Shown: positions 2,891-59,979 of the stretch, in pieces
How positions within the stretch are numbered: the stretch's first letter is position 1
Layout of the letters: every line of letters begins with the position of its first letter
Origin: a virus
Lineage: Duplodnaviria; Heunggongvirae; Uroviricota; Caudoviricetes
DNA: 64,000 nt
Virus record (IMG/VR): IMGVR_UViG_2565956708_000007
Direction: 5' to 3' (one strand)
Position numbers and translations under genes: made by a program
The notes under the pieces: model-generated
The model's database searches: none
What the model saw: only the letters and a program-made list of their open reading frames with translations
Told to the model about the DNA's origin: nothing

Positions 2891-3479
2891 GTATGCAACA
2901 GTCGATTTTGACCAGGTTAATGAAAAGGGGCTGAAATCCCTTATCGCGGCGATCAATAAAACCGGTGTTACGGTAATTGAGGTTGACTCCAGCAACCGCG
3001 CAACAACGAAAGATGGCGTTAAAGTTAAAACCGCAAAGCTGGTTCTTAACGACGGACAAATTCTTGCCATACAGGTAAACGATACTGGCGATATATCGTC
3101 TGTGAGGCTGAATGGAAAAGCTATTCCTAACGCTCAGTCGCCGGATATCAAGACGCTTGGTACCGTCATGGGGCAAGCGGCCCGCAAAAACTCCGCAAAA
3201 TTCCAGAAATCACTGATCGCCAAAGCGAAACGTGTTGCCAATCCGGTAGACAAGAAACCGGCAGTAAAATCCAACTTTCAGCGCCTGCAAGAGGCAAAAC
3301 AGCGGAATGCTCAGGTGGTTGCCGCTTATAAATCAGCGCAGAACTCGGTGTCTTTCAATCAACAGCAGATCACTGATTTGCGGGCGAAGCTGGATAAGGA
3401 GACAGGCCGACTCAATAACGAAAAGGCCCGAAATGGCGAACTCAAACGCCGTCTTAAGCAACTGAAAGCAGGAAATTAA
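2868..3479 (+). CDS. hdf: Hdf, homolog of a DarA fragment (Dar antirestriction operon)
   Basis: 203 aa; shares the KNSAKFQ..coiled-coil segment with the following DarA ORF. Confidence 0.6.
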   Translation: MCQMTKNKYATVDFDQVNEKGLKSLIAAINKTGVTVIEVDSSNRATTKDGVKVKTAKLVLNDGQILAIQVNDTGDISSVRLNGKAIPNAQSPDIKTLGTVMGQAARKNSAKFQKSLIAKAKRVANPVDKKPAVKSNFQRLQEAKQRNAQVVAAYKSAQNSVSFNQQQITDLRAKLDKETGRLNNEKARNGELKRRLKQLKAGN

Positions 3480-9094: not shown

Positions 9095-10189
9095 TCACGA
9101 GAAACTCTTTTCTGATGTCAGCCAACAGTGCTCGTGCATATCTCTTGGTGGTTTTTCGACAAATGCCTCTTCAGCCACATCCTGCCAGGGGATTTGTTTA
9201 GCCCATTCAGTTATAGCGTTATGGTTTGCCGAGAATAACGGTATTGTATAGGCCTTCAGCCAGTCTAATGTGCTGGAGTTGTGTTTTTGAGCGTGATGTT
9301 TCGCATGGTGTTTGGCGATCACGATCGTAGGCACTACCCATTTACTACCGTCAGTCATTGTGAAGTGCATATTACGGGGAACAGATGACTTTTCCATCAA
9401 CTCCCGAATCCCGGGGAATTTCCCCAAGATCAATCGGCGATATTCATCGCTATTGCGCCCACCAAACTCTTTGGCTTTGAATTCAAGATATGCTTCAGAA
9501 ACGAGAGGTGAATCCTCTGTGTTTAGAGTTATCGCCGTGAAAAAACCAGCAGGATTGTTTTTACTATGGGCCAACCGGTGATGCGAATCATAAAAGTACC
9601 CTTTCTCGCGTTCCGATGGTTTCGACAGCAACAGCAGGCGCGAGTCATAATTGGTTAAATTGCCAGTTATCACTGCATGAGCGCGATCGCTGATTTCCGC
9701 CGAGTTAATAACGATGAAAAGATCGTGCGGTCCAGTAAAACCAGCCAGAGACTCTTCGTTATTCAGACAATAGGTTATATAGACGCATCCCCATGTTTCA
9801 CTGATATGCACCAACCCTTTGTCAGGGTGTATTCTGAAATAATTGCCAAGAAAAGGGTGTTTTTGGGTAACTCGCTCCCAATAACGGAACATATAGTCAA
9901 TTATTGTTTTTCGACAATCGTTAATCGCAGGAGAAACAACCACTGTACGGGAACACGAATACAGTATTGTTTGCAGGATGCTAATCACTGCCACAATAGA
10001 GGTTTCCCCAATACCATGTGGTGTGGTGGCAGTGATTTTGGCTCCGGTGTTCTTTATCGCGTTAATAATTTTTGCTTGATGAGGTGTTAACTCAATATCA
10101 AGCAACTCTTTTGCTGCCAGTTCCCAATTGTCTTTATACCGTTCTATCAGTGCTAACCAGGCAGATTCATTCTGTATACGATTAATCAC
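9095..10189 (-). CDS. PacB-like terminase large-subunit ATPase-domain paralog with degenerate Walker motifs, C-terminally truncated
   Basis: Clear similarity to the window's own PacB (e.g. LLLLSKPSEREKGYFYDSHHRLA vs [21 protein letters not shown]; ITLNTEDSPLV vs [11 protein letters not shown]), but Walker A GHGTGKS is PHGIGET and Walker B IIDEAS is VINSAE. Confidence 0.6.
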   Translation of the reverse strand: MINRIQNESAWLALIERYKDNWELAAKELLDIELTPHQAKIINAIKNTGAKITATTPHGIGETSIVAVISILQTILYSCSRTVVVSPAINDCRKTIIDYMFRYWERVTQKHPFLGNYFRIHPDKGLVHISETWGCVYITYCLNNEESLAGFTGPHDLFIVINSAEISDRAHAVITGNLTNYDSRLLLLSKPSEREKGYFYDSHHRLAHSKNNPAGFFTAITLNTEDSPLVSEAYLEFKAKEFGGRNSDEYRRLILGKFPGIRELMEKSSVPRNMHFTMTDGSKWVVPTIVIAKHHAKHHAQKHNSSTLDWLKAYTIPLFSANHNAITEWAKQIPWQDVAEEAFVEKPPRDMHEHCWLTSEKSFS

Positions 10190-15470: not shown

Positions 15471-18400
15471 ATGAACAAGCTATCTATGGGTGTGTTTCGC
15501 TGTTCAAGTGTCAGCGAAATATTGAAATACATTAGGACAATAACATCTCACCGAGCGCCGATTAAATACGGCGTGGAAAAGGTGGAAGGCAAAAGCTATG
15601 ACCGACTGCGCCGGGAGGCGAATCAGAAGGCGATAGATTTGCTTAATTCGCTGGTGGACGGCGCGACACTGACAGATGAACAGCGCCAGATCCTGGCCGG
15701 GTACACTGGTGAAGGCGGCATTGGCGGGTCCGTCTCCGAATATTACACACCAAAGCCTATCGCTGAAGGTGTCTGGGAGATCATGAAGCTCTACGGCGCG
15801 GACGTAGGTAACACTCTGGAACCATCGGCGGGAACCGGCGTTTTTAATGAGACAAAACCGGTTGGTACGGTGATGACCGCGACTGAGATCAGCAGTGTTT
15901 CCGGTCGTATAAACCAGTTGTTACACCCGGAAGACAGCGTACAGATTTCCCCGTTCGAACAGCTGGCTATAAACACGCCTAACGATTCATTCGACCATGT
16001 TGTGGGTAACGTTCCGTTCGGCGGTCGTGATAACACACGCAACATCGATAAGCCTTACGCAGAAGAAACGGACATGGGTTCTTACTTCATGCTCCGCATG
16101 CTGGACAAGATAAAGCCTGGCGGATTCATGTGTGTGATTGTGCCGCCGTCCATTGTTTCAGGTTCAAACATGAAGCGGTTACGCCTGCGCCTATCACGGA
16201 AAGCTGAATTTCTTGGCGCTCACCGCTTGCCTACCGGTACTTTTGACGCAAACGGGACCAGTACAGTCGTTGATGTGGTGCTGATGCGCAAACATCCGGC
16301 AGAGATGGCTGAGAAAATCCCCCTGGTGGATGAAAGCACTCTCGAATCGGCAAATGTGCTTTGGCCAACGTTTATTTCTGGCAAGTGGTTTGAAAAGGAC
16401 GGCCGCCGGTTTGTTCATGGCACCCAGGAAAAGGGCTTCCAGGGGCGTATTGAGGTTCGTGCCGACGGTCAGATTGATAACCAGGCTCTTAAAGCGAAGC
16501 TGATTCATCGTTTCGAAAGCCGTATCGACTGGTCTTTGCTCGATATGGCTGAACCGTCACCGACCGCAGACGTTGTTGGTGAAGGGGAAATGCGCCTGAT
16601 TAATGGCGTATGGCAAAAATATGCTGGTGGTCGCTGGATTGAAGCTGATGCCGGGAAGGAACTTAAGATCGATGCTGCCAGTTATGGCGCGGATAGCTGG
16701 GAGGCTCTTCAGCGTAACCTGACTACAACAGAAGGCCGTCTCGGCATGACATTTACCCAGATGGCAAATGTCCGCGATAAGTACACCACATCAATCAGCG
16801 ACGATATGGTGCAGCTGGTGGACTGGATTAACAGCCAGCCTGAAAAATACCGTGAACGCTTGTATCGCGGGGCGATGATTGGCCGGATGTTAATTGAATA
16901 TCAGGACATGAAGGCCGCCGGGCATAGTGCTGAACAAATCGAACAGCAGCGCCTTTCTCTGGTATCCCGTTTGCAGGCAGAGATTGACCGTTTTGGTAAC
17001 CCCGGTCGCGGTCCGATAGCGAAATTGTCGGGGAGCGGTGCGCGCGCCTGGTTTGCTTTCCGTGGTGCGATTAAGCTGGATGGCACTATTTCTGACGAGC
17101 TGACAGGAAAGCTGGTTACGCATGATTCCAGCGCCAGTTATGACTCCACCAGCTATCAGGACACCCTGCGTTATCTCTATAGCGATCTTACCCGCGATCC
17201 AATCCAGCTCGATGATTTCCGCCTTGCGTTTACCGGCGAACTGCCAGCCAGTGATGAAGAGTTGCTTAATTTATTGGCCAGCACCCCTGGTATTGCGGTT
17301 TCACCGTATGGCGGGATTGTTCCGTTCGCCCGCGCCACCAGCGGCGACATTAACGAGATAGTGGCTCCAAAACAGGAATTTCTTGCCACACTCCCCGACG
17401 GTCCAGTAAAGAACAACGTCCTTAATCAGCTGGCAGCGATCGAAGAGAAGCGCATCAAGACGCCAGCAGAGAATATCCGCTTTAAGCTCAATAGCCGTTG
17501 GTTCGACCGCTCCGTCATTCTGGAATTTTTGCAGGAAAACGGCTATCCGGATCTGCGCTATGTGCAGTCAGTGCAGCTGGAAGGCGACGAAATGGTTTCT
17601 GACACCTATCACGGTGGTGATGGTCTGTTCGTCGGGCACCGATACGGTGTCGTCCAGCGCAAGGATAAAGAAACAGGCGAGATCCGCTACGAGTGGGACC
17701 GTAAATCGGGTGAAAACGCGACCGGGTTCCCGGCACAGCTGGAAAAGTATCTCAATGGTGCGCGTATCGGTGGCAAAGATAGCGCGACGGCGAACGGCTA
17801 CCGCGAGCAGATGGCACTGCTTGAGGACCAGTTCAATAAGTGGATCAAGACGCACGATCGCTACGATGAGCTGGTTGCCAAATACAACGATGTGTTCAAT
17901 AGCAATATCCCGTATGAACACTCTGGCGATCCGCTTGGGTTGAAGGGATTAAGCGGTAAGCGCCAGCCATTTGATTACCAGAATAGCGAGGTGCGCCGAC
18001 TGTCCGAAGATGGGCGCGGCATCCTGGGCTTCGGCACCGGGCTGGGTAAAACCACGACCGCGCTGGCGCTTGAGGCGTTCAACTATGAGAACGGTCGCTC
18101 TACCCGTACTGCGTATGTAGTGCCTAAATCAGTGCTGGAAAATTGGTATTACGAAGCAAAAGAATTCCTGAGTGAAGAGGCATTCAGTAACTACTTGTTC
18201 GTCGGTCTTGATGTGCTGATGGATGGCGATCAGATTCGCCAGGTGCCGGTGCTCAATGAGAACGGTAAACCTGTTCTTGGTACTGATGGCACTCCAGTTA
18301 TGCGCGATGCTCTTAAGCTGGCAGATGAAGCCACTATCACGGCGCGGATGAACGCGATCCCGCACTCAAACTACCGTGCAGTCGTGTTTACCAAAGAACA

Positions 18401-21400
18401 ATACGCCCGCATTCCGCTACGTGATGACACCGTAGATGAGCATGCACAAGACATGCTTTATGACTTCGTTGCCGCCGGGCGCGTAGCCAGCGCAATGGAT
18501 TCCGACTCCCATCGTAAAGAGGCGGCGCGTCGCCGGGTATTGTCGGAGTATTCAGATACCGGTACCGAAAAAGCAGAGAAATATCCGTACTTTGAGGATA
18601 TGGGCTTCGATAGTGTGATCGCCGACGAAGGCCACAACTACCGCAATAGCTATAAAAATGGTCGCGAAGCGTCACAACTGGCCTATCTGCCCACCAGCGC
18701 GGTGGCGCAATCGGCGCGGGATATGGCAATCAAAAACGCGTACCTGATGAAAAAGAATGGCGGGCGCGGGCCGGTTCTCCTGACTGCAACGCCAGTCGTT
18801 AACACCCCGATCGATGCATACAACATGCTTTCTCATGTTCTGCCGAAGGAATACTGGCAGAAGATGGGGATCTACGGTCCTGATGACTTCGTTAAATTCT
18901 TCGGCAAGACCAGGCTGGAAACGGTACAGAAAATCAGCGGTGAAGTTGAAGAAAAAATGGCGCTGGTGGGCTTTGAAAACCTTGATGCGCTGCGCGGTAT
19001 ATTCCATCGCTGGGTAACGCTTAAAACGGCGGAAGACGTTAAGGATACCGTGGAGATCCCGGAGCTGGACGAACACCAGCAGGATGCACCACTTACTGAA
19101 GAACAACTGGCGGCGTATGAAGAATTGCGTCAGCAGGCGGAAGCGGCGGCCAAAGCCAACAATGGCGTAACGACCTCGGTCAATGAAGACGGCGTGATTG
19201 AGCACGAGAAAGCCCGTCCGATCTTCTCAATAATCAGGGATATGGACCGCGTATGTACTGACATGGACCTGTACTATCGCCGGATCACCTATCGTTTCCT
19301 GCCGGAGTACGCCGATGCGGTGCAGCAGCTGGCGGACAGTTTGCCTAAACAAGCCACCAGCGAAGACGACGACAGTGATGATTCAATCACGCAGCAATCG
19401 CAATACTCCCTGATAGATAAGGGCGAGTTTATTCAGTTGCAGGTTCCGGAAGCGTTCGAGCAGGAAGTGAATAAGCGCCTGGCCAGGTTTGGCATTGACG
19501 AACAGACCGTAACTCACCCCGTTACGCCGAAATACGCGAAGCTGATCGCCACGCTGAAGGAGTTTTTCCCGGAAGGTAAGCAAATCATCTTCACCGATGA
19601 AAAAACGCAGCACCAGAAGCTCAAGCGCATTATCTGCAATGCTCTAAACCTTGAACCTTCAAAGGTGGGGATCCTGAATGCTCAGACGGTTGCCGAGGCA
19701 GGTAAAACCGGTAAGAAACTGAAAGCGGTTAAACCGCCGAAAGAGTTACCGGATGAACCAACAGATGCACAGATAGCGAAATACAACGAGCAAATGGCTC
19801 TGTATGACGCCTATATCGCGCAGCAAAATGAAATGTCGTTGGGCGGTCTGGAAAAGATTGCAGCCGACTTCCAGGAGGGCCGGACTCCGATCATCATCTG
19901 CAACAAAAAGGCAGAGGTGGGTATCAACCTGCATCGAGGAACGACTGACATCCATCATCTGACGTTGCCATGGACTCCAGCCAGTATTGCGCAACGAAAC
20001 GGTCGCGGTGCCCGAGTTGGCTCCAACCGTGCAAGCGTTCGCGTTCACTACTACTGCGGCAAGGGTTCTTTCGATGAATACCGACTGAAGACGCTGAAGC
20101 GTAAAGCAGGCTGGATCTCCGATATCCTCCGTTCAGATAAGTCAGAAATGGAGAACGCCGACGCCAACGATATGATCGAAATGCAGATGTATACCGCTAA
20201 GGATGATGGCGAACGTCTGGCAATGATGCAGGTTCAAATGGATAAGGCGAAAGCCGCGCAACGCGCTCGCCAGAAAGAACAGGCTACTATCGACCTTCAG
20301 AACTACATCAAGGCGCAGCACGCAGCTGGTGAGGATGTGGAGGTGCTTACCGCTGAATTAGAGCGAAGCAAAGCGGAACTTGAAAAGACCACCGCCGAGG
20401 TAGCTAAATTCAAACAGGCGGCAATGGCCAAGGCAGCGGATAACGCAGACTGGAAGGCACGCTGGGGGAGTGTCCATCACACAGACCGTATGTTGTTAGC
20501 ACAGTATCGCGCGTCGTTGAAAAGCGCCATTCAGCGCAAGGCTAATATCTCTCAAGCCATCTCCCGCTATGAGAAATTATTGAACCGTACTCAGAAGGCC
20601 GCGACGGATATCAAACGCCTGCGCCCGCTGGTGGAGGATGCATTAAATAAAGGCATTCTGGATGTTGATCCTGACCTGGTTAACCATGCGAGTGAGTTCC
20701 TTGTTATCGGCGATCGCTCATGGCGTGTAGGCCAATACTACGATTGTGCCGGTGATATCGTTCGCATTAAGTCGCTGGACTTCGACAGCCAGCGCGCAGA
20801 CGTGGAGATCATCTTCACCTTCAAAGGCACCAAATCTGGTAACTGGGATGTGAAGACGCTGGATAAACAGGTTGATGTAACTCCCGATGAAGATGCTGTT
20901 ATGCAGAAAATCAGTGGTGGCGTCTCCATCGCCGGGATTAACGACATCGTTTCCTGTGACGATTTCTACCGTTTCCAGCAGCGCGGCATGATCAAAATCA
21001 CTGACTCATACGGTGTTCAGACTACAGAGTCAGGCTATAGCATTGATTTTGTTGGTACCTATACGGACCCACTGAAGCATGCGGTTTACCCGGATCGCCG
21101 TGACGGCGCGCTGAAGTCGTCAATTGCAAAATGGGTGCTTGGTATGATGTCGGAAGGGAATAACCGCCAGATCCGTTCGGCAGAAGCATTCCTGGTTGAA
21201 CTGTTTGGCTCCAATTATGGCGATGTAATCGCGTCATACGGAGATACGCTATCCCCTGAAGCAATTCAGGAGAAAATAGCGGATGCGATCGCCAGAATGC
21301 CGGAGAAAACAAGCCAGGGGGCTACTCGTAACGGGGATTCTGAACTTGAAGTCACCAATGCCATTTTCGGTACCAATGAGTTCCGGGCGTCAGATTATGA

Positions 21401-22238
21401 GATCACCACAGCACAGTTTGGCACCATTGGCATTTACAGCAATAAAGACGAGATCAAGCAGGCAATGGACGCAGCAAGCGCGCGCATTGCAGCAGAACGG
21501 AAAGTCAATCTGAATCATGCAGTCGCCGCGCTGACTCAATCGTGGGTAACAGCAATCAGGGAGGCCGCCACCACAGGAAAAATCACACCGGCAATTGCGG
21601 ATGTCGTAAACGACGGCTCTAAATTTATGGATGCCTATAAAATGGATGCGGTGCAGTTGCCATCAGCCTATGGGCAACTCAGCTATCGCATGACCTACAA
21701 CCTGGTATCAATGTTTACCGACCTTGCCATCCTTGGGCTGGTGGACCTTAACGAGGTTACGCCGGAATTGCTCAGCATGCGCAAGAATCATGTGGAGATA
21801 TTGCACAGAATTAACACGGTACTTGCCGGGCGCACCGATGAAGAGAAACAGGCAGACGCTGATCGGATAAACCTGGCCCTTGGCAACATCACGGAGGAAG
21901 AAATTGCTGCCAGAAACGAGAAACAAGAAGAGTTATCATCAATACAGGGTGATGCCACCAGCATAGCTCAGTCTCTTGGTCTGAATTATCGCGTATCCAC
22001 CGCCGACCTGAAGATGATGTACGCACCAAAATTCGCCGCTGGCGAGGTATTTGGGCTTCAGGAAGCCTCCGGCATGAAAGGGGTTCTTTTCCGTGCGAAA
22101 GACGCAATCAAGGCGAAATTCGGCGCTCGCTGGTTGCCAGCGAAGGCGAAGAACAGCGACTTCCCAGGTAACTGGTGGATTATCGAGACAAAACACAACG
22201 TGGCGGACGTTCTGGCCGTCATCCAACAATACGCATAA
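15471..22238 (+). CDS. darB: DarB, giant antirestriction protein with N6-adenine methyltransferase-like and DExH helicase domains
   Basis: 2255 aa; helicase motifs VIADEGHNYRN and LLTATPVVN read from translation. Confidence 0.85.
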   Translation: MNKLSMGVFRCSSVSEILKYIRTITSHRAPIKYGVEKVEGKSYDRLRREANQKAIDLLNSLVDGATLTDEQRQILAGYTGEGGIGGSVSEYYTPKPIAEGVWEIMKLYGADVGNTLEPSAGTGVFNETKPVGTVMTATEISSVSGRINQLLHPEDSVQISPFEQLAINTPNDSFDHVVGNVPFGGRDNTRNIDKPYAEETDMGSYFMLRMLDKIKPGGFMCVIVPPSIVSGSNMKRLRLRLSRKAEFLGAHRLPTGTFDANGTSTVVDVVLMRKHPAEMAEKIPLVDESTLESANVLWPTFISGKWFEKDGRRFVHGTQEKGFQGRIEVRADGQIDNQALKAKLIHRFESRIDWSLLDMAEPSPTADVVGEGEMRLINGVWQKYAGGRWIEADAGKELKIDAASYGADSWEALQRNLTTTEGRLGMTFTQMANVRDKYTTSISDDMVQLVDWINSQPEKYRERLYRGAMIGRMLIEYQDMKAAGHSAEQIEQQRLSLVSRLQAEIDRFGNPGRGPIAKLSGSGARAWFAFRGAIKLDGTISDELTGKLVTHDSSASYDSTSYQDTLRYLYSDLTRDPIQLDDFRLAFTGELPASDEELLNLLASTPGIAVSPYGGIVPFARATSGDINEIVAPKQEFLATLPDGPVKNNVLNQLAAIEEKRIKTPAENIRFKLNSRWFDRSVILEFLQENGYPDLRYVQSVQLEGDEMVSDTYHGGDGLFVGHRYGVVQRKDKETGEIRYEWDRKSGENATGFPAQLEKYLNGARIGGKDSATANGYREQMALLEDQFNKWIKTHDRYDELVAKYNDVFNSNIPYEHSGDPLGLKGLSGKRQPFDYQNSEVRRLSEDGRGILGFGTGLGKTTTALALEAFNYENGRSTRTAYVVPKSVLENWYYEAKEFLSEEAFSNYLFVGLDVLMDGDQIRQVPVLNENGKPVLGTDGTPVMRDALKLADEATITARMNAIPHSNYRAVVFTKEQYARIPLRDDTVDEHAQDMLYDFVAAGRVASAMDSDSHRKEAARRRVLSEYSDTGTEKAEKYPYFEDMGFDSVIADEGHNYRNSYKNGREASQLAYLPTSAVAQSARDMAIKNAYLMKKNGGRGPVLLTATPVVNTPIDAYNMLSHVLPKEYWQKMGIYGPDDFVKFFGKTRLETVQKISGEVEEKMALVGFENLDALRGIFHRWVTLKTAEDVKDTVEIPELDEHQQDAPLTEEQLAAYEELRQQAEAAAKANNGVTTSVNEDGVIEHEKARPIFSIIRDMDRVCTDMDLYYRRITYRFLPEYADAVQQLADSLPKQATSEDDDSDDSITQQSQYSLIDKGEFIQLQVPEAFEQEVNKRLARFGIDEQTVTHPVTPKYAKLIATLKEFFPEGKQIIFTDEKTQHQKLKRIICNALNLEPSKVGILNAQTVAEAGKTGKKLKAVKPPKELPDEPTDAQIAKYNEQMALYDAYIAQQNEMSLGGLEKIAADFQEGRTPIIICNKKAEVGINLHRGTTDIHHLTLPWTPASIAQRNGRGARVGSNRASVRVHYYCGKGSFDEYRLKTLKRKAGWISDILRSDKSEMENADANDMIEMQMYTAKDDGERLAMMQVQMDKAKAAQRARQKEQATIDLQNYIKAQHAAGEDVEVLTAELERSKAELEKTTAEVAKFKQAAMAKAADNADWKARWGSVHHTDRMLLAQYRASLKSAIQRKANISQAISRYEKLLNRTQKAATDIKRLRPLVEDALNKGILDVDPDLVNHASEFLVIGDRSWRVGQYYDCAGDIVRIKSLDFDSQRADVEIIFTFKGTKSGNWDVKTLDKQVDVTPDEDAVMQKISGGVSIAGINDIVSCDDFYRFQQRGMIKITDSYGVQTTESGYSIDFVGTYTDPLKHAVYPDRRDGALKSSIAKWVLGMMSEGNNRQIRSAEAFLVELFGSNYGDVIASYGDTLSPEAIQEKIADAIARMPEKTSQGATRNGDSELEVTNAIFGTNEFRASDYEITTAQFGTIGIYSNKDEIKQAMDAASARIAAERKVNLNHAVAALTQSWVTAIREAATTGKITPAIADVVNDGSKFMDAYKMDAVQLPSAYGQLSYRMTYNLVSMFTDLAILGLVDLNEVTPELLSMRKNHVEILHRINTVLAGRTDEEKQADADRINLALGNITEEEIAARNEKQEELSSIQGDATSIAQSLGLNYRVSTADLKMMYAPKFAAGEVFGLQEASGMKGVLFRAKDAIKAKFGARWLPAKAKNSDFPGNWWIIETKHNVADVLAVIQQYA

Positions 22239-22271: not shown

Positions 22272-22712
22272 ATGGCCACACTATCTGATACAATAAAACC
22301 GAATAAAACATATCTTGAGGCGGTACTCCGTACAGCGTTGTTAGGAAAGACAGAAGACGAATACGTTGATTTCTTCCTGTCAGGGCTACGCGGGCGATTA
22401 CTGAAAAATCCCCGCCTGTACCGCAGCTATGGTCCATACTGGCCGGAAATTAAAAAATTATTACTGGAGCGCGGTTATGGTAATTTCGGTCGTCTCGTTG
22501 ACCGTGACGTTCGCAAAATTTACCGTTATGACCGCCCGGCGCTAACACTCATAGCCGCGACGCTCTACAGCCAGGAGCGTTTTGATAATGGTCAGATATA
22601 CTCAGCCTGGCATTTACTGCCAGTGCCTGAAGAAGTTGACGACCAGGACTATGAGTTTGAGTCTTACGATTTGGAAGTTGAAGCCTTGGCACAGGCTGGA
22701 GAGAAAACTTGA
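22272..22712 (+). CDS. ulx: Ulx-like
   Basis: 146 aa ORF immediately downstream of darB; by position. Confidence 0.5.
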   Translation: MATLSDTIKPNKTYLEAVLRTALLGKTEDEYVDFFLSGLRGRLLKNPRLYRSYGPYWPEIKKLLLERGYGNFGRLVDRDVRKIYRYDRPALTLIAATLYSQERFDNGQIYSAWHLLPVPEEVDDQDYEFESYDLEVEALAQAGEKT

Positions 22713-22957
22713 AAAAGCGATACTACACAGTAAAGCATGGGACGCTACGAGCATTACAAGAGTTTGCTGACAAGCATAACGTTGAGGTGCGCAGGGAAGG
22801 GGGAAGTAAAGCTCTGCGCATGTACCGTCCGGACGGGAAATGGCGTACAGTCGTCGATTTCAAAACAAACAGTGTTCCCCAGGGCGTCCGCGACCGGGCA
22901 TTCGAAGAATGGGAGCAGATCATCATAGATAATGCATTGCTTCTCAATGCTGATTGA
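22709..22957 (+). CDS. lxc: Lxc-like (C1 co-repressor position)
   Basis: 82 aa, TTG start after GGAGAG; followed by hairpin GCCCGG-TTTGCA-CCGGGC. Confidence 0.5.
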   Translation: MKKRYYTVKHGTLRALQEFADKHNVEVRREGGSKALRMYRPDGKWRTVVDFKTNSVPQGVRDRAFEEWEQIIIDNALLLNAD

Positions 22958-23039
22958 GTTTTGTTGGCCCGGTTTGCACCGGGCGTTTCACAAACAATCA
23001 ACTGGTTTGTAGTTCCTGCGGCGAGATGAATTATTAATA

Positions 23040-23648
23040 TTATCGTGGTGCCGATGATGCGATAGCCTGTATGATGTTATCAATATCGTTATCGTTCAGC
23101 ATGAATATAGGTACACCATTAGAGTTTGCATTTTTTTCAGTGCTCATCAAACAAAGCCCCTCATACATGCCGCGAGTTTTTTTGAAATTGGCGACTGATG
23201 GAGTGGTGTAATTTCCTTTAAAGTGCATTCCGGCTGATTCATAAAAAGGAACCAAATCAGACTGGCAAATCAAAGCGACCTCATTTGGAAATGCAAGTAT
23301 TTCTGCCAGTATATTACTTCCAAGTCCATTACCACGATATTGCTCATATACATATATTTTATGACAGTACAACGGAAAATTTCCCGATGGATGTCCGAAG
23401 ATTAAGGCGTATCCGAACAAGTTTTCTTCATTAGTAAAGCCCATAATGCGCAAATGACCGGCTCGGTAACACTCTTCAAAAACGTTAATTATGTAGCTTC
23501 TCGCTGCTTTCAGCTCCTCTTCTGTCGGGAACATCATCAACCCCATAAGCGATGGAGTATAGGCCAGATCCTGAAGAATCCCATTAGCTTCATTTTCGAA
23601 AATTAGCGGTAAGTGCGGTACAATTTCATTTGCCGAGGTATTAGACAT
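23040..23648 (-). CDS. GNAT-family acyltransferase, low-GC accessory gene in the slot where P1 carries res/mod
   Basis: 202 aa; acetyl-CoA motif A QYRGNGLGSNILAEIL and motif-B-like LVPFYESAGMHF; visibly AT-rich gene and upstream region. Confidence 0.6.
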   Translation of the reverse strand: MSNTSANEIVPHLPLIFENEANGILQDLAYTPSLMGLMMFPTEEELKAARSYIINVFEECYRAGHLRIMGFTNEENLFGYALIFGHPSGNFPLYCHKIYVYEQYRGNGLGSNILAEILAFPNEVALICQSDLVPFYESAGMHFKGNYTTPSVANFKKTRGMYEGLCLMSTEKNANSNGVPIFMLNDNDIDNIIQAIASSAPR

Positions 23649-23656
23649 AGTATGGT

Positions 23657-23680
23657 GAGTCCTTTGTTTTCAAAGGACTC
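23657..23680. promoter_or_regulatory. Perfect palindrome GAGTCCTTTG-TTTT-CAAAGGACTC 9 bp upstream of the GNAT start codon
   Basis: 10-bp arms, 4-bp spacer; the only SD-like sequence (AAGGA) lies inside one arm. Confidence 0.5.
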
Positions 23681-23846
23681 ATGTTATCAGTGATAATCGT
23701 TTGTTGTAATAGTGTTGATAAAATAATTTTCTATTATGTAAGCAAGCTCATTTTTATGACGGGTAATGCAAAAAAAATAGAATCAAAAAACTAAAAAATA
23801 ATAATTCATGGGGTTTTACACCATCAAAAGTCCCCACTATAAATTA

Positions 23847-24488
23847 TTAGAAATAATTATGCTTGCCTGTTAATACCCCTTTCGGCACTTTTTTTTGTTC
23901 CAGTGTCTGGGTACCCAGAATTATGTTAATAAGTGGACTTAGTAACGATGGTTCCTGGCGGGCTTCAACTTCTCCAGCCATTGCCCTGATGTAGTCGGCG
24001 CTGGCAACGTTGTTGTATTCCGTCGCAAAGCAACATAGTAACGTCAGAACATGCTCTGTCGTTATTTCGCTCCAGTTGATGTTGAAAAATTCATCGCCTT
24101 TTTTATCGTGTTCGGAATCGAAGATGCTTTGGTGGAGGATGTATTTGCCGGATTCCTTGCGCGGTAACTTGATCGCTTTCTGGCGTTCCAGCTCCTTGTA
24201 AATCTGCATTGCTTCAATCAGTACCGGCCTGCCGTTCATGAAGGGATCGCGCAACCTTACACGCTGGCCAACTCGACCAGTAATAAAGCTGTTTTCCTCT
24301 TCCACCAGCACGATAAAACCCTTTTCCTCTTTTTCTCGCAATTCGCGCAGCAGCTGGAGTTCCATGTCGCGGCGGCGTTCAGGGTAGCTGGTCCGCTCAG
24401 CCATTATCAGCTCGTTGTTGATCCATGCAGCAGTCATTGACGCCGGTTTGCCGACGCTCATCGAAACAACGCATATTTTCTTATCCAT
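23847..24488 (-). CDS. mat: Mat-like protein
   Basis: ORF between the variable slot and ref; by position; start chosen at MDKKICVV. Confidence 0.45.
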   Translation of the reverse strand: MDKKICVVSMSVGKPASMTAAWINNELIMAERTSYPERRRDMELQLLRELREKEEKGFIVLVEEENSFITGRVGQRVRLRDPFMNGRPVLIEAMQIYKELERQKAIKLPRKESGKYILHQSIFDSEHDKKGDEFFNINWSEITTEHVLTLLCCFATEYNNVASADYIRAMAGEVEARQEPSLLSPLINIILGTQTLEQKKVPKGVLTGKHNYF

Positions 24489-24676
24489 AGCGCCCCTACA
24501 AAAAAGAAAAGCCACCAGCGGCGGCTTAGCAATACAACTGAAGGTAGCGCCCGGTACTCAGACTGTGCCGTCCATGGAATATTTGAAAAGGGATCCATCC
24601 GTACCGGGCGTGTGATGATTCTGACTCAAGTCACTTGTCAGTTGTCAATCATTTAAGATTAAAAATAATATATTTA

Positions 24677-27373: not shown

Positions 27374-27390
27374 AGAATTATTAGAGCAAT
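27374..27390. promoter_or_regulatory. C1 operator (AGAATTATTAGAGCAAT)
   Basis: 2 mismatches to consensus; paired with the operator at 27457. Confidence 0.6.
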
Positions 27391-27450
27391 AAATTTTGAG
27401 AGAAAAATCCCACTCCACCAGCCAAAAACTGGATTGTTTTTCATAGTTGT

Positions 27451-27478
27451 TTGACAATTGCTCTAATAAATTATAGTT
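27451..27478 (+). promoter_or_regulatory. Sigma70-like promoter (TTGACA ... TATAGT) overlapped by a C1 operator, directed toward coi/c1
   Basis: Consensus -35 hexamer immediately 5' of operator 27457-27473. Confidence 0.45.
27457..27473. promoter_or_regulatory. C1 operator (ATTGCTCTAATAAATTA)
   Basis: 16/17 match to consensus. Confidence 0.7.
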
Positions 27479-59951: not shown

Positions 59952-59979
59952 ATTACACTAATAAATTTATTAGAGCAAT
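59952..59979. promoter_or_regulatory. Overlapping inverted pair of C1 operators (ATTACACTAATAAATTTATTAGAGCAAT) on the dmt stop codon
   Basis: Right half is a perfect match to the reverse consensus; sits at the head of the minus-strand tRNA / plp / ban operon. Confidence 0.7.

Follow-up and report, generated by a model that had tools for sequence, protein, structure and literature searches.

The window, by which we mean the whole 64,000-nucleotide stretch of DNA analysed here (IMG/VR record IMGVR_UViG_2565956708_000007, Caudoviricetes), carries P1 genes in P1 order on both sides of a cassette of 889 bp, which runs precisely from the stop codon of lxc to the convergent one of mat and holds one gene, encoding a stand-alone GNAT N-acetyltransferase. 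Our analysis of the slot and of the protein family suggests that this gene is a credible and reasonable, though unproven, candidate for a defense function. The slot and its borders are composed as follows:

22709-22957, plus strand: lxc, encoding the C1 co-repressor, the left conserved flank, 98% identical to P1
22958-23846, no strand assigned: variable cargo cassette, the "RD-1" hotspot of P1, delimited by the homology breaks, the empty site of phage RCS47, the GC content, and the equivalence to RD-1
23040-23648, minus strand: stand-alone GNAT N-acetyltransferase gene, 202 amino acids (WP_000072647; phrog_10454), called from the open reading frame (ORF), its ATG start, and Pfam and PHROG matches
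23847-24515, minus strand: mat, for maturation control, the right conserved flank (23847-24488 in the RefSeq annotation)

On the left side, darB (15471-22238) and ulx (22272-22712) precede lxc on the plus strand, and on the right side mat is followed on the minus strand by ref, c8, cre, and cra. An earlier interpretation of this DNA from its letters (the sequence-only reading) had recognized the canonical P1 order of the flanks, although it omitted c8 and swapped cra and cre, a minor error. The single minus-strand 202-amino-acid GNAT ORF that it placed in the res/mod slot is confirmed with its motifs and with the exact coordinates of the cassette, and so is the absence of the type III restriction-modification locus of P1. 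In P1 itself (NC_005856), mat ends at 3468 and lxc at 9750, and the 6.3 kb between them are occupied by res, mod, and IS5. When the window was compared by BLAST with seven other P1-like genomes, the left homology break fell at 22955-22961; homology restarts at 23842-23849 in four of the seven (P1, RCS47, SJ46, and JL22) and at 23965-23979 in the other three. Phage RCS47 displays the empty site, with ~40 bp separating the stop codons of lxc and mat. Moreover, the slot has a GC content of 0.381 versus a window mean of 0.487 (standard deviation, 0.029) and, at this length, has the highest AT content in the 64-kb window; only 0.3% of the 889-bp positions equal it, and all of these overlap the slot. 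This AT-richness relative to the neighbors, already remarked on in the sequence-only reading, is beyond chance.

The right border is less uniform than the left one. In three cargo types (L023, L024, and L025; the loci compared with the window bear L numbers), homology restarts ~120 to 130 bp inside the 3' end of mat (window 23847-23979), which means that the C-terminal ~40 residues of Mat are polymorphic; they seemingly move with the cargo. The mat product has 213 to 222 amino acids here, against 250 annotated in the P1 reference.

That the slot varies is already known. Venturini et al. (2019) described positions 3,469-9,749 of P1 as RD-1, which is among five AT-rich hot-spots and in which ORFs specific to each element stand instead of res-mod (PMC6906374). 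The cassette studied here occupies exactly the same interval, is likewise AT-rich, and has its own ORF in place of res-mod, whereas the published comparison dealt with three elements and included neither GNAT cargo nor a defense-hotspot framing. The novelty that the sequence-only reading had attached to the locus was therefore overrated: besides the published slot, the gene has a RefSeq annotation and a PHROGs entry, and the PDB already includes a structure whose protein is identical. In the searchable literature, neither the slot's character as a defense hotspot nor a function of the GNAT family appears to have been reported; we found no paper there that gives the slot a defense reading or the family a function.

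To describe the slot more widely, a query made of ulx, lxc, the slot, and mat was used, which gave 703 plasmid records with common flanks; the slot states reported here come from sampling these and phage records. At least nine states were seen, namely, the empty slot, the EcoP1I type III restriction-modification system of P1, a RelA/SpoT protein (373 amino acids), a SIR2 protein (434 amino acids), a PIN protein (316 amino acids), a DUF2971 protein (346 amino acids), two two-gene modules (YaaC with a 169-amino-acid ORF, and a helix-turn-helix [HTH] protein with an EAL-domain or hypothetical protein), and the GNAT gene. Matches to PADLOC models of defense or candidate-defense proteins were obtained for SIR2 (PDC-S25, ThsA, and LmuA), PIN (PDC-S34), DUF2971 (PDC-S31), and CapRel (PDC-S33). 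In Salmonella phage SJ46, the slot gene is the sole RelA/SpoT gene of that region (L021 1296-2417), and CapRelSJ46, from this phage, is described in passages of PMC9712102 as a proven capsid-sensing defense protein; the same passages make no mention of the slot or of its relation to P1 res-mod. CapRelSJ46 resembles the window GNAT in being encoded by a single minus-strand gene in AT-rich DNA in the same lxc-mat slot of a P1-like phage, but it is an unrelated fused toxin-antitoxin protein, in which a RelA/SpoT tRNA pyrophosphokinase is joined to an antitoxin-like sensor domain. The lxc-mat slot behaves as a defense hotspot: with EcoP1I in P1, CapRelSJ46 in SJ46, and SIR2, PIN, and DUF2971 proteins in the same place, the defense/counter-defense exchange point supposed in the sequence-only reading is upheld.

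The GNAT cassette was present in 22 of the 703 plasmid records (~3%), as two alleles, and in 19 of 5,426 complete Escherichia coli genomes, always on plasmids of ~90 to 110 kb. It was not found in canonical P1, whose slot lacks it, and none of the 50,697 phage records searched contained it. The two alleles occupy the same slot and share ~86% of their nucleotides and 84% of their amino acids (dS, 0.57), while their flanks are ~98% identical; the cassettes of the second allele lie at L002 3428-4299 and L003 4863-5734. Such divergent alleles inside nearly identical flanks point to repeated cassette exchange through flanking homology.

Other slot genes came to light in this survey. By the same logic of location, the YaaC-family gene with its 169-amino-acid partner (L029 9745-11294) and the HTH gene paired with an EAL-domain or 199-amino-acid protein (slot genes of L030 and L023) are further candidates. 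The locus L024 (GenBank OP279344, labeled "P1 isolate del res del mod") has ORFs of 233 and 229 amino acids in its slot (1297-2922), in the same layout as the HTH plus EAL/hypothetical pair of phage Ro157c2YLVW and plasmid pYLPD4b, and these could be natural cargo or an inserted marker. In L025 (GenBank MH422554), an unannotated slot ORF at 1311-2351 has 346 amino acids, the length of the DUF2971 protein of other plasmids, and is probably a missed gene call.

The GNAT protein carries the two motifs quoted in the sequence-only reading, QYRGNGLGSNILAEIL at residues 103-118 and FYESAGMHF at residues 135-143, and both fall in invariant or near-invariant columns of an alignment of 19 homologs. Its Pfam matches exceed the gathering cutoffs weakly (Acetyltransf_10, 27.3 bits for a cutoff of 23.6; Acetyltransf_1, 25.6 bits for a cutoff of 20.7), and the match to phrog_10454, a group of unknown function, runs end to end over the full length. 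The protein has the pyrophosphate-binding loop for acetyl-CoA (motif A, Q/R-x-x-G-x-G/A) as Q103-Y-R-G106-N-G108-L-G-S, and in the same 19 homologs Y104, R105, G106, G108, G110, and S111 of this loop are invariant, as are the YCHK motif (94-97), which contains H96, and Y136 within PFYxxAG; further invariant stretches comprise much of the N-terminal helix LPxIFENEAxGILQDL and parts of the C-terminal PxFMLND motif. The dN/dS ratio of ~0.15 indicates purifying selection on the gene. The family is small: a set of 1.8 billion representatives yielded ~57 clusters with E < 1e-10 when grouped at 50% identity, the number being ~90 when the grouping is at 90%. All its members are single-domain gammaproteobacterial proteins of 190 to 210 amino acids (Enterobacterales, Pseudomonas, Plesiomonas, and Methylophaga).

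No partner gene accompanies the family. The 198-bp leader contains no ORF longer than 37 codons, and in an all-against-all BLAST across six context types the matches were limited to the GNAT and to antisense shadow ORFs, with no conserved neighbor gene, in agreement with the claim of the sequence-only reading that a partner antitoxin is missing. The proteins of ~400 amino acids encoded downstream in Serratia and in Methylophaga are unrelated and have no Pfam domain. As judged from its sequence, the GNAT is a catalytically intact, acetyl-CoA-dependent N-acetyltransferase, predicted to act alone.

The AlphaFold (AF2) model of the protein (pLDDT of 88) comprises two long N-terminal helices, the GNAT core, and a C-terminal helix. 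A structure exists as well: residues 31 to 232 of PDB 9S30 chain A are 100% identical to all 202 residues of the GNAT, in an entry named merely "GNAT family N-acetyltransferase." The 30 extra N-terminal residues are presumably a tag, since there is no in-frame start codon upstream of the ATG, and the entry must be a recent release, as it is absent from a fold library ending on 8 April 2026; no paper on 9S30 or on the GNAT protein was found in the searchable literature. Among characterized enzymes, those for arylalkylamine and diamine/polyamine acetylation come nearest at the profile level (E about 5e-5), and the top of the Foldseek list is likewise taken by polyamine acetyltransferases. H96 and Y136 align with His122 and Tyr168 of AANAT, the catalytic general base and general acid of that enzyme. 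Like AANAT, SSAT, SpeG, and PaiA, which act on cationic amines, the GNAT has the common core, the acetyl-CoA loop, and an acidic character, and its His and Tyr align as putative counterparts of the catalytic pair; AANAT- and SSAT-type enzymes, in contrast, are devoid of the long conserved N-terminal helices (3-62) and of the C-terminal PxFMLND-helix extension of the GNAT family. All family members are acidic (pI of 4.3 to 5.9 and net charge of -4 to -15; pI of 4.95 and net charge of -9 for the window protein). This acidity, together with the weak affinity to amine and polyamine acetyltransferases, suggests that the acceptor is probably cationic, i.e., a basic protein or a polyamine-like molecule.

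Members of the family were found in at least nine kinds of genomic place: P1-like phage-plasmids; a second phage-plasmid type with a P7-C1-like repressor (Serratia and Klebsiella); a Raoultella lambdoid prophage, as an opposite-strand moron; a Klebsiella IncFII conjugative plasmid, next to repA and ~5 kb from McrBC; a site beside an IS3 element in Serratia; a Pseudomonas aeruginosa island with HipAB; and further Pseudomonas and Methylophaga islands. Within IMG/VR, the family is confined to P1-like elements, the second phage-plasmid type, and prophage-like contigs, which are temperate elements. The Pseudomonas homologs located in defense islands are 41 to 45% identical to the window GNAT. In P. 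orientalis, the homolog stands between an AbiJ-like gene, Septu PtuA, and a full-length Gabija GajA/GajB pair (E = 0); in an integrase-bearing island of Pseudomonas type (L033), it stands between Lamassu LmuB/LmuA (E = 0 and 1.8e-266) and a QatC-like gene; and in P. qingdaonensis, an AbiJ-like gene is 409 bp away and PemK is nearby.

The island L033 (2318-18603) also packs a QatC-like/HTH-M78/DUF3368 cluster, a NERD/UvrD helicase, and a DEAD/MZB helicase of 2,110 amino acids, and contigs carrying it occur in 103 index blocks of the assembly collection. In the Serratia/Klebsiella phage-plasmid (L005 6599-8008), the start of the GNAT gene overlaps the preceding 95-amino-acid ORF by 8 nucleotides; this ORF is not conserved elsewhere, and its best Pfam match (E = 0.011) is below cutoff. 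Further upstream, an ORF of 176 amino acids shows a faint GNAT match (Acetyltransf_3, E = 0.05) and is not conserved with the GNAT elsewhere. The upstream ORFs of 149 and 95 amino acids of this phage-plasmid were considered as homologs of Ulx and Lxc and rejected, as they have no similarity to them.

Short noncoding elements predicted in the cassette or at its edge are the following:

22967-22984, no strand assigned: GC-rich hairpin with a 7-bp stem (GCCCGGT/ACCGGGC), lying between the stop codon of lxc and the facing one of the GNAT gene and folding on both strands
23656-23681, minus strand: perfect 11-bp inverted repeat with a 4-nucleotide spacer, ending 8 nucleotides before the ATG (RNA fold of -16.1 kcal/mol, z = -5.25, none of 200 shuffles as stable)
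23681-23689, minus strand: candidate extended -10 promoter element (TG-A-TAACAT), from the alignment of the leader motif
23798-23827, minus strand: alternative sigma-70-like promoter candidate (TTGATG, 18 nucleotides, TATTAT) ~150 nucleotides upstream of the ATG, weak, scoring 9/12 in a consensus scan
23799-23849, minus strand: hairpin and U-run directly after the mat stop, terminator-like for mat and mostly inside the cassette (-13.6 kcal/mol, z = -2.0, tail UUAUUAUUUUUU; modest support)

The upstream regions of seven Enterobacterales loci, representing five context types, were aligned, and a leader motif, CTG(A/C)TAACAT(C/G)AG, is kept in all the Enterobacterales contexts ~35 to 50 nucleotides upstream of the ATG. 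We infer that this motif is an extended -10 promoter. The 11-bp repeat belongs to the window allele alone, being absent from the 86% allele and from the other contexts, and its downstream arm includes a Shine-Dalgarno-like AAGGA. As an RNA hairpin, it could block the ribosome-binding site of transcripts that begin upstream; alternatively, it could be an operator bound by a protein. The operator is the more likely option if the TAACAT element is where transcription starts, since the repeat would then span the start site, whereas in transcripts that come from further upstream or by read-through from mat the ribosome-binding site would be occluded. At the other end of the cassette, the hairpin at 22967-22984 is likely a shared transcription stop, and the 86% allele has an equivalent hairpin of different sequence between the stops (L002 and L003). 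No C1-operator-like site (ATTGCTCTAATAAATTT, up to 3 mismatches) was detected in the cassette, and its comparison with the late-promoter -22 box (AAGTGACTT/A) was made by eye only. Elsewhere in the window, C1-operator-like sites at the same threshold are scattered over 11681-63501, one of them, at 59963-59979, matching the consensus perfectly and others being paired near 27374-27473 and 45858-45923.

We propose that the prophage-plasmid uses the GNAT in its conflict with other mobile elements, most likely for anti-phage defense, a proposal to which we give even weight for and against. It builds on the observations that the functionally understood occupants of the slot are defense systems and that distant relatives of the gene reside among defense systems. 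Enzyme family, intact cofactor and catalytic motifs, stand-alone organization, hotspot position, and defense-rich neighborhoods are direct observations. The cassette is interchangeable cargo of a recombination hotspot of P1-like phage-plasmids and contains one GNAT gene. According to the proposed model, this gene travels with its own short leader and putative promoter, so that it is probably expressed from the resident prophage-plasmid. The lysogen would then be protected against other phages through acetylation of an amine on a positively charged target, which may be a lysine or the N terminus of a basic phage or host protein or else a polyamine-like small molecule. Among the roles that had been envisaged from sequence alone, a single-gene abortive-infection or defense factor is the best supported, by association only. 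There is a precedent for such cargo, since Brc113 and BrcP, two single-gene GNAT integron cassettes, have been reported to confer phage resistance (bioRxiv 10.1101/2024.07.02.601719). Like the window GNAT, they are single-gene GNAT cargo of mobile elements, but their carriers are integron attC cassettes.

Several points weigh against this proposal. The assignment to defense is guilt by association, derived from about a dozen sampled contexts, and hotspots and defense islands also hold anti-defense genes, toxin-antitoxin systems, and unrelated cargo. Brc113 has no detectable similarity to the GNAT, the Brc113 query being approximate and with frameshifts, and no family of PADLOC-DB v2.0.0 (a library of 2023) matched the GNAT at E <= 1. 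Among the slot occupants, the YaaC and HTH/EAL modules have no PADLOC match either, such that the GNAT is not the only cargo devoid of a defense annotation; on the Serratia chromosome (L013), no recognizable defense gene is located nearby. Finally, the consensus promoter scan did not call the TAACAT element, which leaves the promoter of the cassette as an inferred one.

The alternative that survives best, while being unlikely in our view, is that the gene is ordinary cargo, an acetyltransferase that modifies or detoxifies a cationic metabolite, antibiotic, or toxin (a polyamine, an aminoglycoside-like compound, or a peptide toxin) for the host, with no direct link to phage. The amine acetyltransferases AANAT, SSAT/diamine acetyltransferases, SpeG, and PaiA are indeed the closest profile and fold matches, the surface is acidic, some contexts contain no defense genes, and resistance genes are known to be carried as cargo by P1-like plasmids (PMC6906374). 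On the other hand, none of the NCBIfam equivalogs for AAC, streptothricin/PAT-type, ArsN1, or RimI enzymes reaches its cutoff (PRK10314, 13.4 bits versus 171; RimI, 12.5 versus 86.4; ArsN1a, 12.4 versus 170), so that no resistance or housekeeping enzyme, RimI included, comes near. Furthermore, the gene is repeatedly placed in a defense hotspot and in defense islands, and its family is small and sporadic, unlike widespread resistance genes.

Somewhat less probable again is a role in counter-defense, whereby the GNAT would acetylate and inactivate an immune protein of the host or of a rival and thus help the mobile element to establish itself or persist. The gene adjoins the antirestriction genes darB and ulx, it is carried by several kinds of mobile elements, including a conjugative plasmid, and its acidic product could be directed at an immune protein that is basic. 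AcrVA5, which acetylates a lysine of Cas12a and thereby inactivates it, offers a parallel as a small GNAT anti-CRISPR encoded on a mobile element and engaged in phage-host conflict; however, the GNAT is no more similar to AcrVA5 than to dozens of unrelated GNATs. Those alternative occupants of the slot whose function is understood are all defense systems, with no anti-defense gene among them, the distant homologs reside in chromosomal defense islands by Gabija, Lamassu, and Septu, and no member of the family occurs in the virulent phages sampled, a group in which anti-defense genes are common.

We consider very improbable that the GNAT is a solitary toxin of the TacT/AtaT/ItaT type, acetylating aminoacyl-tRNA as an addiction or abortive-infection module with no separate antitoxin. 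GNAT toxins are common on plasmids and prophages, P1 res-mod, in the same slot, also works as an addiction module (PMC6906374), and the perfect palindrome at the ribosome-binding site could hold expression low. TacT, AtaT, ItaT, and KacT share with the GNAT, as does Mu Mom, the fold and carriage on plasmids or phages; nevertheless, type II GNAT toxins need an antitoxin partner (usually upstream, overlapping, of the ribbon-helix-helix/DUF1778 type, and of ~90 amino acids), and neither an upstream antitoxin ORF nor, across the contexts compared, a conserved partner was found. Both the toxins and Mom use tRNA by way of basic surfaces, and positively charged surfaces characterize tRNA- and DNA-binding GNATs (PMC13219725), whereas the whole family studied here is acidic. 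The gene is intact, highly conserved, and stably kept in dozens of plasmids, and no TacT/AtaT-type structure was among the top structure matches.

The idea of a Mom-like nucleobase-modifying acyltransferase that shields the DNA of the element from restriction, suggested by the GNAT fold of Mom and by the adjacent antirestriction genes, is effectively refuted on homology, charge, cofactor loop, and insertion alike, as BLASTP (E = 1.1) and hhalign (probability, 0.2%) reveal no resemblance to Mu Mom in sequence or profile, Mom has a pI of 10.0 and a net charge of +19 versus 4.95 and -9, and the GNAT keeps the canonical acetyl-CoA loop and has no HTH-like insertion, while Mom takes Gly-tRNA instead of acetyl-CoA and needs such an insertion at residues about 175-209 (PMC13219725).

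Returning to the anti-phage reading, a more specific form of it, which we put forward tentatively and regard as doubtful rather than probable, is that this small acidic GNAT family represents a previously unrecognized single-protein anti-phage effector. Expressed from the prophage-plasmid, it would, upon infection, use acetyl-CoA to acetylate a basic phage protein or else to deplete or neutralize a polyamine-like cation that the phage needs, and development of the phage would thereby be blocked. If true, this would be immunity by N-acetylation, a mechanism not represented among the characterized systems, at the very hotspot that harbors EcoP1I and CapRelSJ46. Should the GNAT be a defense gene, it would constitute a compact, single-gene, acetylation-based system (889 bp with its native leader) for which a crystal structure is in hand. 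Independently of the GNAT, our survey indicates that the lxc-mat slot behaves as a hotspot for single-gene defense in P1-like elements, which several per cent of the isolates of Escherichia and Shigella carry. Its uncharacterized occupants (the GNAT, YaaC and its partner, and the HTH/EAL pair) may, therefore, be taken as a short list of candidate immune genes, presented by nature in an isogenic framework.

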